NCBI GenBank assembly: GCA_030167145.1
Contig: CP126532.1
Span: 1,740,001 to 1,772,000 of the forward strand
Direction: 5' to 3'
Length of the DNA stretch: 32,000 nucleotides
Source: Ktedonobacterales bacterium
Lineage (GTDB): Bacteria > Chloroflexota > Ktedonobacteria > Ktedonobacterales > JADMIN01
Shown here: positions 7,331-12,940 of the stretch, one piece after another
Layout: every line of letters begins with the position of its first letter
Position numbering within the stretch: position 1 is the stretch's first letter
Made by a program: the position numbers and the translations under genes
The notes under the pieces: model-generated
What the model saw: only the letters and a program-made list of their open reading frames with translations
Databases searched by the model: none
What the model was told of the DNA's origin: nothing

Positions 7331-7600
7331 ATGAGCTACACCATCACCATCTCCAACGAGCAGTACGAGCGGCTCGAAACCCTCGCCAGTGCGCTCGGCC
7401 AGACGCCCGAAGAGACGCTCGCCGCGCTGCCGCGCGACGCCCTCCCCCGCGACGGCCACGACTCCGAGGCCAGCGCCGAGACCAACGACCTGGAGCATAG
7501 CCCGCTCTTTCAGGTTATCGGTTCTCTCACCGATCCAGGGATAGAGCCAGAACCCGGCTGGACGGAGCGACACGACATCATCATCGCTGAGAAGGCGTAG
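7331..7600 (+). CDS. small acidic hypothetical protein (89 aa)
   Basis: Internal ATG of the 7193..7600 ORF. The upstream extension is Arg/Ala-rich and looks non-coding. The product MSYTITISNEQYERLETLASALGQTPEETLAAL... has no recognised motif. The Shine-Dalgarno sequence is weak. Confidence 0.4.
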   Translation: MSYTITISNEQYERLETLASALGQTPEETLAALPRDALPRDGHDSEASAETNDLEHSPLFQVIGSLTDPGIEPEPGWTERHDIIIAEKA

Positions 7601-9723: not shown

Positions 9724-9887
9724 CGTGCCTGCTCTCCTTCGTATCATCACTTACGCGCCGCCGCTATTCTACCGCACCGCGTCCATTGAAACGCCTGGTA
9801 CGCTACGCTGGCAGTGAGTCTCGCCTCGCATTCTAGTTTTTCAACCTGCACTGGTGTCCCTTGTCAGTGCGCTTTGTATCGTATGGG

Positions 9888-9933
9888 TTGCATATTGCAT
9901 GTAGTGATTGTATAATGTATGCAATGCATACAT
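9888..9933 (+). promoter_or_regulatory. sigma-70-type promoter (TTGCAT-N17-TATAAT) with overlapping 19-bp perfect palindrome
   Basis: The -35 TTGCAT is at 9888-9893, followed by a 17-nt spacer and a consensus -10 TATAAT at 9911-9916. The palindrome ATGTATGCA-A-TGCATACAT spans 9915-9933, with extra TGCAT half-sites (TTGCATATTGCAT) upstream. The line 9881-9940 is 22/60 GC against about 70% nearby. The element lies about 70-90 nt upstream of the TIR ORF. Confidence 0.6.
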
Positions 9934-10002
9934 GCTGTACGTACCGCAAGCGCACCGTGTTAGTATGGTCGCGTAACCGTGCGTGTGGAGGGAGTGGGCG
10001 CC

Positions 10003-10608
10003 ATGGGTGGCATGAGCGCATCGCGTATCTTCATCAGCCATAGCCATGCCGACAACAACTTCGCCCGCAAACTTGCCGATGAGCTACGTGCGGCTGGTGC
10101 GGATGTCTGGTACGACGAGCATAATCTCTCGTCGGGCGACTTCCTAAACAACATCTCGCGAGAACTGCGTGACCGCTCCGTGGTCGTCGTGGTGCTCTCC
10201 AAATCTGCGCTCGCCTCCCAGTGGGTGAATACGGACTTGGATTCCGCGCTTGCGCTTCACTTGCGCGAACCTGGGCGCATCATCGTGCCCATCGTCGCGG
10301 AGCCGCTCGCGCCCGAAACCCTTCCGCCGCTGCTGGCTTCATTCAAGCGCATCGCCGCGCCGGGCGACCAGCCCTACTCACCCGAAGAAGCCGCGCGCCA
10401 TCTGCTCGATACATTGGGGCTGAAGCCGCTGGCCAGCACAGCCAGTACCATAGCGGAGGAAGCGGAGGACGCCGAAATGGACGAGGAAGACCATAGCTGG
10501 CAGGTCGCTATGGCCAGCACCGCTACCCTGATGCTCGACCACCTGCTCGACCAAGCCAAAGAGCAGATTGAACACGGCGACGTCCGAGATCTGGCAGAGC
10601 TTCTGTGA
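10003..10608 (+). CDS. TIR-domain protein with acidic linker and short C-terminal helical tail
   Basis: RIFISHSHADNNFARKLADELRAAGADVWYDEHNLSSGDFLNNISRELRDRSVVVVVLSKSALASQWVNTDLDSA is a TIR_2-type (PF13676-like) domain. The ATG at 10003 is preceded by GGAGGGAG with an 8-nt spacer. The tail is EEAEDAEMDEEDHSWQ...LLDQAKEQIEHGDVRDLAELL. The stop overlaps the next start. Confidence 0.8.
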   Translation: MGGMSASRIFISHSHADNNFARKLADELRAAGADVWYDEHNLSSGDFLNNISRELRDRSVVVVVLSKSALASQWVNTDLDSALALHLREPGRIIVPIVAEPLAPETLPPLLASFKRIAAPGDQPYSPEEAARHLLDTLGLKPLASTASTIAEEAEDAEMDEEDHSWQVAMASTATLMLDHLLDQAKEQIEHGDVRDLAELL

Positions 10609-10877
10609 TTTCAAAGACCACACCAGCGTTTCGCAGATTGTTCAACGCGCTGCCGCCCGACATCCAGGCGCAAGCGCGCGACACTTTTGTGCTGTTCACG
10701 TCGAACCCCAATCATCCCAGCCTGCATTACCAGCGGATCAAGCGGCACAAGGACTGGCTGCGCTCGGTTCGCATTGGCCTCAACTACCGTGCCCTCGCCA
10801 TTGAGCGGGGCAATATTCTGTACTGGATTTGGATCGGCCCCAGAGCCGATTTCGACTATTTCATCAAACACTATTAG
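10605..10877 (+). CDS. RelE/ParE-superfamily toxin-like protein (90 aa)
   Basis: The pattern F-x-x-L...PPDIQAQARDTFVLFTSNPNHPSLHYQRIK...WLRSVRIGLNYRALAIERGNILYWIWIGPRADFDYF matches the RelE/ParE-type family (HPSL, SVRI..YRA, W.WIG...Y). The GTG start overlaps the upstream TGA (GTGA). Confidence 0.7.
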   Translation: MISKTTPAFRRLFNALPPDIQAQARDTFVLFTSNPNHPSLHYQRIKRHKDWLRSVRIGLNYRALAIERGNILYWIWIGPRADFDYFIKHY

Positions 10878-10958
10878 GTGACCTCAATTTTCCTCAGCGC
10901 ACGCCCGCACACACCAGCGTGGTATGGTATGCTGCATGCAGCAGCCTTCGTGGCTCGC

Positions 10959-11002
10959 CCGGACGAGATGCGCGCCGTACCCGGATGGCAAAGACGACGC
11001 GC
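10959..11002 (+). ncRNA. candidate guanidine-III (ykkC-III) riboswitch aptamer
   Basis: CCGGACGAGAUGCGCGCCGUACCCGGAUGGCAAAGACGACGCGC aligns almost position for position with the Thermobifida fusca guanidine-III 41-mer as I recall it (CCGGACGAGGUGCGCCGUACCCGGUCAGGACAAGACGGCGC). P1 is CCGG(10959-62):CCGG(10981-84). The pseudoknot pairs GCGCGCCG(10970-77) with CGACGCGC(10995-11002), with one C-A mismatch. It lies 45 nt upstream of the ATG of a small membrane protein. Possible extended -10 boxes TGGTATGGT/TGGTATGCT are at 10920-10933. Confidence 0.65.
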
Positions 11003-11047
11003 GACCCGGTGATCGTCCTGGCGAACAGACCACGGAGGCATATTGCT

Positions 11048-11314
11048 ATGCAAGGGTTTACGCAAGAGTTCTTGCAGATTTTCGGCGCGATCCTCATCCT
11101 TGGCGCGTTCATCCTCGCGCAGTTTCGCATCCTCAACCAGCACTCGTATCTTTATCTGCTGCTGAATATTATCGGCTCCGGCATCCTCGCCGTGCTCGCC
11201 GCCATCACCCAACAGTGGGGCTTTCTGCTGCTCGAAGGCGGCTGGGCGCTCGTCGCGCTGTGGAGCGTCGTCGCCCGCCTCACTGGTCGCACCCCCGCCC
11301 CCTCGCACGGCTAA
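11048..11314 (+). CDS. small 3-TM membrane protein (88 aa; resembles the CBU_0592-type small membrane protein family, function unknown)
   Basis: The ATG at 11048 has GGAGG 10 nt upstream. The product is MQGFTQEFLQIFGAILILGAFILAQF...YLYLLLNIIGSGILAVLAAI...WGFLLLEGGWALVALWSVV. It has three hydrophobic helices and a membrane-embedded Glu in LLLEGGW. It lacks the SMR signature and four-helix length. Confidence 0.7.
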   Translation: MQGFTQEFLQIFGAILILGAFILAQFRILNQHSYLYLLLNIIGSGILAVLAAITQQWGFLLLEGGWALVALWSVVARLTGRTPAPSHG

Positions 11315-12218: not shown

Positions 12219-12605
12219 TCAGAACGGCAGATAGATAAATTGATCGTGCCACTCCCTGTGCGCACTGCACGACCAAACGAACAACAGCGCATCAATCGCG
12301 GACCCAATTGGCAGCCGTTGCGCCACCGACATCACCCCTGGACTATGCTCCCCCGCAGGCAGATGCATGAGCAGGTCGTCAAGATATGTGGGTATTGTAC
12401 GACGATCATGGGTGAGCAAAATACGGTCCAGTGCTTTTGCGGCAACGAGAAGCTCTGGATCAGGAGTGGCAAGTAATCCCAACTGCTGGGCGGTCACAAT
12501 ATCTATCGCGGGCTGACGACGGCGCAGGCCAGCAACAATGTGCAGGTTAAAGTTGGCATCGGTGAGAAAGCGTGGTGGCCCATCACCCGCTTCTGCTCCG
12601 GTCAT
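12219..12605 (-). CDS. DUF5615-family PIN-like putative toxin
   Basis: FLTDANFNLHIVAGLRRRQPAIDIVTAQQLGLLATPDPELLVAAKALDRILLTHDRR is characteristic of DUF5615 (Mut7-C/PIN-like) proteins. The ATG overlaps the stop of the upstream DUF433 gene (ATGA). Confidence 0.7.
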   Translation of the reverse strand: MTGAEAGDGPPRFLTDANFNLHIVAGLRRRQPAIDIVTAQQLGLLATPDPELLVAAKALDRILLTHDRRTIPTYLDDLLMHLPAGEHSPGVMSVAQRLPIGSAIDALLFVWSCSAHREWHDQFIYLPF

Positions 12606-12940
12606 GAGGCGGCGCTCGGCTGATGCTCAGCCTGGTATCGCGCGATACGCTCGCGCATCATCGCGAAAAACTCTGGCCGCGCGGACTCGGCCTCCGCCCG
12701 CTGTTGTGCGGCTTGGGCATCGCCCTGGCGGAAGAATGCCTCCATCTCGCTCTGGTGCTCTAGATAGTGCAGGATGGTCCCGTATATCTCCGCCAGGGAG
12801 AGATGTGGGAATCCATTGCGTATCTCTTCCGGTGTGTATCCCTGCTGCCACGCCGCGACGACGCTATAGACCTCGACGCGCCCGCCGCCGACATACCAGT
12901 TGCCATCACGATATTGCACGTATTTCTCGGCTTCCGACAC
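12602..12940 (-). CDS. DUF433-domain putative antitoxin
   Basis: GGRVEVYSVVAAWQQGYTPEEIRNGFPHLSLAEIYGTILHYLEHQSEM is a typical DUF433 HTH-like domain. The GTG start is preceded by AGGAGG with an 8-nt spacer. It has a 4-nt overlap with the DUF5615 gene. Confidence 0.7.
   Translation of the reverse strand: MSEAEKYVQYRDGNWYVGGGRVEVYSVVAAWQQGYTPEEIRNGFPHLSLAEIYGTILHYLEHQSEMEAFFRQGDAQAAQQRAEAESARPEFFAMMRERIARYQAEHQPSAAS

Follow-up and report, generated by a model that had tools for sequence, protein, structure and literature searches.

A TIR gene that overlaps a toxin gene

The window analysed here is a stretch of 32,000 nucleotides (nt) from a Ktedonobacterales bacterium, and our subject is a two-gene module within it, in which a gene for a TIR-domain protein (gene A) takes the place of the antitoxin gene directly upstream of a gene for a RelE-fold toxin (gene B). 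Gene A lies on the forward strand at 10003-10608, from an ATG at 10003, which follows a GGAGGG by about 9 nt, to a TGA at 10606-10608. Its product of 201 amino acids (aa) is already deposited, with identical sequence, as the hypothetical protein OJF49_001631 from a 5.07-Mb contig of a metagenome-assembled genome of a Ktedonobacterales bacterium. Gene B lies on the same strand at 10605-10877 (GTG start at 10605, TAG stop at 10875-10877) and encodes 90 aa. A preliminary description of the locus had noted that the stop codon of gene A overlaps the start codon of gene B by 4 nt, that the locus holds no separate antitoxin gene, and that the module is lower in GC content than its neighbours. All three observations were reproduced: the overlap reads GTGA at 10605-10608, the list of open reading frames (ORFs) contains no further antitoxin candidate, and GC content is 0.53-0.60 over the module as against 0.65-0.75 in its flanks.

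Gene A had been read as a TIR_2 domain followed by an acidic linker and a short helical tail, and both Pfam and structure prediction agree with this layout. The TIR_2 family (PF13676) matches residues 9-133 with an E-value of 2.3e-23, and gene A also scores above the cut-offs for the Pfam TIR and ThsB_TIR families (PF08937, 29.2 bits against a cut-off of 21.2). In NCBIfam and PADLOC it retrieves generic TIR or TIR-region matches only, several PADLOC ThsB models among them. In an AlphaFold2 model built from 28 homologues, with a mean predicted local distance difference test score (pLDDT) of 83.8, a TIR fold is predicted over residues 8-138 (10024-10416, forward strand) at pLDDT above 90. Confidence is low from about residue 140 to 160 (below 50 at residues 152-157), and the model then continues with a long helix at residues 162-190 and a short helix at 195-200. 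By pLDDT and composition the acidic linker comprises residues 143-159 (10429-10479, forward strand); within it, at 10451-10479, a tandem 9-nt duplication (GCGGAGGAA GCGGAGGAC) amounts to an insertion of 3 aa relative to the orthologue described below. A Foldseek search of the PDB with the TIR domain returned as its top matches the TIR-APAZ protein of SPARTA, AbTir (32% identity, TMt 0.81), SARM1 and BtpA, and by these structural matches the modelled domain belongs to the NADase-type group of TIRs.

The preliminary description had also reported that the catalytic Glu of NADase TIRs, found in a W-x3-E motif at the start of helix alphaC, is replaced by Asp. This is indeed so: the residue is Asp78 (codon 10234-10236, forward strand), where 27 of 28 close homologues have Glu. 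The change is confined to the window copy, and the orthologue (P0002), 88% identical, keeps the Glu in the sequence WVNIEL. Asp78 is moreover the sole departure of the window TIR from 26 invariant or near-invariant alignment columns, the other 25 being intact.

The closest relatives of the TIR domain share 40-53% identity with it, and almost all of them, from Chloroflexi and cyanobacteria, have the layout TIR-linker-TPR. The similarity extends over the TIR module, including a helix of the form EAxxRxLxxLxL, through the end of that helix at LLDTLGLKP (about residue 140), beyond which the alignments diverge: the relatives have TPR repeats after the linker, whereas gene A has the tail discussed in the next section. 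From these alignments, the simplest history would be that a TIR module of the TIR-TPR type was fused to an antitoxin gene of which the 3' half was kept.

For gene B, the earlier assignment to the RelE/ParE type was confirmed by a match to the Pfam family PF24732 (ParE_like; 27.4 bits, cut-off 24.4) and by the predicted fold. The AlphaFold2 model has a pLDDT of 91.6 and a beta-alpha-alpha-beta4-alpha topology, and Foldseek aligned it with RelE (1wmi), Mycobacterium tuberculosis RelE1 and RelE2, YafQ, YoeB and HigB at template modelling scores of 0.65-0.71 and a probability of 1.00, with a ParE complex appearing first at rank 50. The Pfam family is named after ParE, but the modelled fold leans towards the RelE-type RNase branch. 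Sequence comparisons were less informative. A profile of the toxin family found nothing below an E-value of 0.26 among the PDB sequences, and NCBIfam and PADLOC gave no match for gene B. An hhalign comparison of the family with Escherichia coli RelE and YoeB was not significant and yielded no mapping of catalytic residues. Residues R56, Y61 and R62 are kept in gene B.

The tail of gene A and a widespread antitoxin family

The tail of gene A (residues 160-201; 10480-10605, forward strand) carries W166, the motif LDHLL at 178-182 and RDLAELL at 195-201, and it is a putative toxin-binding segment. A hidden Markov model (HMM) of 75 canonical antitoxins, taken from upstream of gene B homologues, aligns with residues 160-198 of gene A over its positions 29-68 of 71 (17.5 bits, conditional E-value 4.5e-7), and the match finishes at the C-terminus of both the profile and gene A. 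When aligned with MAFFT, the tail falls in register with the antitoxin columns that are conserved in at least 90% of sequences (W, L, L), and all three residues are present. We also compared the end of gene A, HSWQVAMASTATLMLDHLLDQAKEQIEHGDVRDLAELL, with the antitoxins of its nearest toxin relatives, meaning toxins that are 51-54% identical to gene B. These antitoxins end in TDLDELLAEARREIAEGGARDLDELL (relative 1) and RRWEAAMDDPHDLVIDRLITEAKAQVARGEARDLDESL (relative 2), and their C-terminal motifs, LDELLAEARREIAEGGARDLDELL and RRWEAAMDDPHDLVIDRLITEAKAQVARGEARDLDESL, are near-identical to that of gene A. Because the tail shares homology with the C-terminal end of cognate antitoxins, gene A is, judged from its sequence, a genuine TIR::antitoxin chimera, composed of a TIR module (residues 1 to about 142) and the C-terminal half of a cognate antitoxin (about 150-201). 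The N-terminal helix of the canonical antitoxins is gone according to the same alignments, and the TIR domain stands in its place. A TIR-antitoxin fusion had been proposed from the position of the gene; the homology of its C-terminal 40 or so residues now backs that proposal beyond position alone.

What a canonical member of this family looks like was established from 80 genome loci with gene B homologues, 78 of which were usable for inspecting the upstream gene. In 75 of the 78, the upstream ORF encodes 60-100 aa, with 65-80 aa as the usual size; a few longer calls result from upstream extension of the ORF through GC-rich DNA. At 50 of the 78 loci the antitoxin and toxin genes share exactly 4 nt, with start codons as called in this analysis. 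The canonical antitoxins have an N-terminal helix with an LPxxEQ motif and a C-terminal region of the form W-D-x-Q-I-E...G-K-L-D-x-L-x-x-E-A...G-x-x-R-x-L. Six of them were searched against Pfam and NCBIfam, and they returned no family match and no recognisable DNA-binding domain; a Pfam search of gene A likewise gave no recognisable DNA-binding domain. A search of 5.8 billion proteins with the antitoxin profile produced 831 matches, of which the best 120 are all small and unannotated. Taken together, toxins of PF24732 paired with a two-helix antitoxin occur in many phyla, at no fewer than 574 genome loci and with at least 831 antitoxin clusters, and toxin genes of the family that lie on plasmids carry the annotation "hypothetical protein". 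Full-text searches of the literature, with closed-access literature outside their scope, found no experimental study of PF24732. This is a widespread and uncharacterised type II toxin-antitoxin (TA) family, with a RelE-fold toxin and a helical antitoxin of 65-80 aa for which there is no curated family. The closest metagenomic relative of the toxin (53% identity; locus L088, 11-3273) has a plain antitoxin and lies directly 3' of an ORF of 898 aa, which by eye resembles an SNF2/helicase-type protein and may indicate a defence-island context.

Comparison with studied TA systems places the module close to RelBE and ParDE in its organisation. As in those systems, the antitoxin gene comes first, is co-oriented with the toxin gene and overlaps it by 4 nt, the toxin is a RelE-fold protein of about 90 aa, and the antitoxin has a conserved C-terminal helical segment that presumably binds the toxin. 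It differs from them in that the antitoxin has no ribbon-helix-helix, helix-turn-helix or Phd-type DNA-binding domain and that a 140-aa TIR domain forms its N-terminal part, and in that the PF24732 toxins and their antitoxins are uncharacterised. A DNA-binding antitoxin domain and operator autoregulation are typical of type II TA modules, but they are not universal: PaaA2, the antitoxin of ParE2 in E. coli O157:H7, is a small helical protein without a DNA-binding domain. The canonical antitoxins of the PF24732 family resemble PaaA2 in their size of about 65-75 aa, in being helical, in having no detectable DNA-binding domain and in having a partner of the RelE/ParE superfamily. This is a likeness of description, and there are differences as well, in that no PaaR2-like third gene is seen here and that the first half of the antitoxin in gene A has been replaced by a TIR domain.

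The preliminary description had suggested that the module is transcribed from a near-consensus promoter overlapped by the operator of an autoregulated TA system. The promoter-like element is present on the forward strand at 9888-9916 (TTGCAT at 9888-9893, a spacer of 17 nt, and TATAAT at 9911-9916), but "near-consensus" overstates it: TTGCAT matches TTGACA at 3 of 6 positions, a scan with the sigma-70 consensus reports no site, and the -10 reads TATGAT at the orthologous loci (L001-L003). A perfect 9+1+9 palindrome, ATGTATGCA-A-TGCATACAT, can likewise be read directly at 9915-9933, where its 19 bp overlap the -10. It also overlaps a larger imperfect dyad (9881-9894 and 9918-9931), whose 14-nt arms are 86% complementary, lie 23 nt apart and bracket the region from -35 to -10. 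About 0.9% of Markov simulations of the 252-bp intergenic region hold such a 9+1+9 palindrome, and across the 32-kb window two were observed where about two are expected. In the orthologues a single C-to-T mismatch breaks the symmetry of the palindrome. At 76 canonical loci, the best upstream inverted repeat has a mean arm of 5.8 nt, compared with 5.4 nt in simulations, which is no excess, and the leader RNA folds no better than its shuffles (z = +0.8). With no DNA-binding domain in the chimera or the canonical antitoxins, no excess of palindromes at canonical loci and a weak -35, the proposal of an autoregulated operator was not upheld.

Distribution of the fusion and readings of the module

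We next consider how widespread the fusion is. The only other full-length match to gene A is P0002, a protein of 198 aa. It is encoded on three short contigs derived from the Sequence Read Archive (L001-L003), where it is followed by a 90-aa ParE_like gene and then by a CBU_0592-family gene. Because this is the gene order found in the window, P0002 is, on synteny and sequence identity, the same locus in a close relative. Among 1.84 billion cluster representatives, phmmer found 22,241 TIR matches, of which P0002 alone spans residues 1-201; the alignments of the other best 150 matches with gene A end at about residue 140-180. A word-indexed search gave 28 TIR matches, again with P0002 as the only full-length one, and inspection by eye of 16 TIR homologues, mostly under about 235 aa, found no antitoxin tail in any of them. 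The surroundings of P0183, a short TIR homologue, contain no gene resembling the toxin. Starting from the toxin instead, a metagenome scan gave three loci, two of which were inspected and found to encode plain antitoxins, and the closest relatives of the toxin all carry plain antitoxins. Among the toxin homologues, the TIR-toxin pairing is kept, with synteny, in the 88% identical orthologue, and the upstream gene encodes a plain antitoxin at 75 of the 78 usable loci. That the architecture had not been described before was an earlier remark that still stands, in that full-text literature searches, closed-access literature being outside their scope, gave no description of a TIR-antitoxin fusion. 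The fusion thus appears to be undescribed so far.

When a TIR HMM was run on 90 loci, TIR genes were found only in the orthologues and at one further locus (L021, 2795-4363), from Candidatus Villigracilis vicinus (Anaerolineae). Here a canonical pair is followed, after a gap of 146 nt, by a gene for a protein of 317 aa, read by eye as a TIR domain with an FGE-sulfatase-like region. We considered this locus as a sign that TIR domains associate with canonical pairs and rejected it, as it is one case in about 80 loci and concerns a separate downstream gene.

The presence of a TIR domain invites comparison with described TIR systems, the partners of which the preliminary description had reported not to be adjacent. 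This was checked against the annotated genes of the window, over a range of about 10 kb before the module and about 14 kb after it. Within those limits there is no ThsA (SIR2/SLOG/Macro), no CD-NTase or cyclase as in CBASS and Pycsar, and no APAZ or Argonaute as in SPARTA, PADLOC giving TIR-region matches only and gene A ending at residue 201; the report was accurate. Gene A resembles Thoeris ThsB and the stand-alone bacterial TIRs in having a TIR_2/ThsB_TIR-type domain, but unlike ThsB it has no ThsA among the annotated genes and ends in an antitoxin tail. In SPARTA as in gene A, an N-terminal TIR is joined to a segment that attaches to the protein encoded next to it, an attachment that is predicted in the case of gene A. 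Gene A differs from SPARTA in having neither APAZ nor Argonaute, in having a 90-aa RelE-fold protein as partner, and in the loss of the catalytic Glu from the window copy. Antitoxin polypeptides with a second function related to NAD or ADP-ribose, or to sensing, have precedents in the macrodomain of DarG and the fused antitoxin of CapRel SJ46. These precedents involve unrelated domains and toxins, and neither is known to include a TIR.

The reading that we consider probable, on the tail homology and the structural models, is that the module is a type II TA module with a chimeric antitoxin, whose tail would neutralise the RelE-fold toxin and whose TIR would be tethered by the disordered acidic linker. 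According to this reading, a gene fusion in one Ktedonobacterales lineage would have swapped the N-terminal helix of the antitoxin for a TIR of the type seen in TIR-TPR proteins, which abound in that group. The retained tail (helix 162-190 and RDLAELL) would bind and neutralise the toxin, as the same segment of the canonical antitoxins presumably does, and translation of the toxin would be coupled to that of the chimera. The TIR would hang from the complex on about 20 residues of acidic disordered linker, as a tethered, oligomerisation-prone module of the NADase type brought under the control of the TA complex. In the window genome, the replacement of Glu78 by Asp has probably attenuated it.

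Several observations weigh against this reading. The catalytic position is Glu in 202 of 210 related TIR domains, and the window protein alone has Asp there. Two residues that are near-invariant in the toxin family, H80 and Y83 of the motif IGxHxxY, have become R80 and F83 in the window and L001 alike, and because they are replaced in both orthologues the toxin may be inactive. Neutralisation by the tail alone is an assumption, given that only half of the canonical antitoxin has been kept. The fusion is confined to one lineage, a pattern equally compatible with a recent accident and with a new function. Finally, we estimated the ratio of nonsynonymous to synonymous substitution rates (dN/dS) from the window and L001, which are 92.5% identical in DNA over 2.2 kb and are the only two sequences available for the comparison. 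The chimera has a dN/dS of 0.76 (24 nonsynonymous and 10 synonymous changes), and it differs from the toxin and two neighbouring genes combined with a Fisher p of 9e-4. The toxin gene has a dN/dS of 0.18 (6 nonsynonymous, 9 synonymous), the CBU_0592-family gene one of 0.26 (9 and 11) and the cytidylate-kinase-like gene one of 0.06 (3 and 17). By this estimate the toxin is under purifying selection, and the chimera shows signs of relaxed or diversifying selection, between which two sequences cannot distinguish. The earlier idea that the module may be an abortive-infection system or a TIR-gated RNase loses weight through the restriction to a single lineage and the high dN/dS of the gene that encodes the TIR.

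These observations bear directly on an alternative that we regard as possible though somewhat doubtful, namely that the architecture is an evolutionary accident in which the TIR of a TIR-TPR paralogue became joined, through a deletion or rearrangement, to what was left of the antitoxin gene, its 3' half, and that addiction keeps the ORF open while the TIR drifts as a passenger. Because a neutralising tail is translated through the TIR frame, an intact ORF alone is no proof of TIR function: after a stop codon or frameshift in the TIR part the tail would no longer be made and the toxin would be set free, with lethal effect, so an intact ORF is expected even with a functionless TIR. The contrast in dN/dS fits this explanation, as do the loss of the catalytic Glu from the window copy alone, the restriction of the fusion to one lineage among 1.84 billion representatives and the plain antitoxins of all close toxin relatives. 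Yet all but one of the 26 conserved TIR columns are intact, the TIR fold is predicted with high confidence, and the orthologue has the catalytic Glu; the substitution pattern is no clear witness either, relaxed and diversifying selection being indistinguishable from two sequences. The argument from an enforced ORF would also be weakened if the tail were supplied alone. A putative internal start for such a peptide exists at Met159 (10477), where an in-frame GGAGGA-N7-ATG, conserved in L001, could give a tail-only product of 43 aa. Split expression of this kind, with the short peptide as a free antitoxin and the full-length TIR protein having a separate role or none, seems to us improbable. It has in its favour that the GGAGGA lies 7 nt before the ATG and just ahead of the antitoxin-homologous segment, with the conservation already mentioned. 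However, the purine-rich motif follows automatically from Glu, Asp and Ala codons, the two loci are 92% identical anyway, and the 43-aa peptide would be without the canonical N-terminal helix.

The module might also work in the opposite sense, with the TIR as the effector. The RelE-fold protein, its catalytic residues altered, would then be a sensor or regulator (e.g. of ribosome or mRNA state) and not a killer, the tail an adaptor and the TIR an effector that depletes NAD+. We give this idea little credence, and the same is true of the wiring it would entail by analogy with SPARTA, in which the tail would hold the TIR to the RelE-fold partner as APAZ holds TIR to the short Argonaute, and a change in the partner's state would let the TIRs oligomerise and fire. 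What speaks for it is that the best structural matches of the TIR are to SPARTA TIR-APAZ and to NADases of the AbTir/SARM1 type, and that in all its close paralogues the TIR precedes a module, such as TPR, that binds a ligand or partner. In spite of having lost H80 and Y83 in both orthologues, the toxin is under purifying selection, and high dN/dS is also seen in immune sensors. Nevertheless, Arg80 together with Tyr85 could still form a RelE-like active site, and the window copy has no catalytic Glu. The idea is further opposed by the position of the module, which sits outside any defence island, with a DUF711 gene on one side and the gene for a riboswitch-controlled membrane protein on the other, and a distribution limited to one lineage speaks against a successful defence system.

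The architecture appears to be new, but it is limited to one lineage and shows signs of relaxed constraint, and what it means depends on which of these explanations applies. If the chimera is functional, it places a TIR domain of the NADase type under the control of a type II TA module and links two major strands of bacterial stress response and immunity, NAD+ depletion and translation-targeting toxins, in a whole arrangement of only about 290 residues that would be easy to test. An effector role of the SPARTA kind would amount to a previously unknown wiring of a TIR effector to a TA scaffold. If instead the TIR is a passenger, addiction can preserve an ORF without function, which would call for caution in predicting defence systems from domain architecture. 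The chimera is also a natural example of antitoxin modularity, in which the toxin-binding half was kept and the other half exchanged for an unrelated domain, and it draws attention to a large TA family that has no experimental characterisation and whose antitoxin has no curated family.

Neighbouring features

The wider window holds housekeeping genes, with rpoD and dnaG at its left end. The DUF711 gene lies on the upstream side of the module and is divergent to it, and the other annotated neighbours are an SDR gene, the gene for a CBU_0592-family membrane protein, the cytidylate-kinase-like gene, a DUF433/DUF5615 pair and an MFS transporter gene. We found no direct or inverted repeats flanking the module in the manner of a cassette.

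Between the stop codon of the toxin gene and the gene for an 88-aa membrane protein (11048-11314; the orthologue belongs to PF26604, CBU_0592) lies a guanidine-III (ykkC-III) riboswitch, RF01763, at 10938-11003 on the forward strand. It scores 42.7 bits against a gathering threshold of 36 (E-value about 6e-8) with the full model covered, and no terminator is predicted between the toxin gene and the riboswitch. The gene for the 88-aa membrane protein may be controlled by guanidine, and would then be an unusual target in not being an SMR gene. The 5' edge of the riboswitch (10930-10943) is occupied by a perfect 14-nt palindrome, TGCTGCATGCAGCA, and its TGCAT core is common with repeated TGCAT/TGTAT motifs near the promoter-like element of gene A (9875-9933).

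A second TA-like pair is found 1.3 kb downstream of the module on the reverse strand (12219-12940), where a DUF433 gene (12602-12940) overlaps a DUF5615/PIN_10 gene (12219-12605) by 4 nt; this pair also lies within a patch of lower GC content (0.57-0.62). Upstream of the module, an ORF of 89 aa at 7331-7597 on the forward strand, beginning MSYTITISNEQYERLETLASALGQTPEETL, has only a weak, sub-threshold Pfam match (Rnk_N). It has no obvious partner, and it resembles a small helical protein of the antitoxin type.

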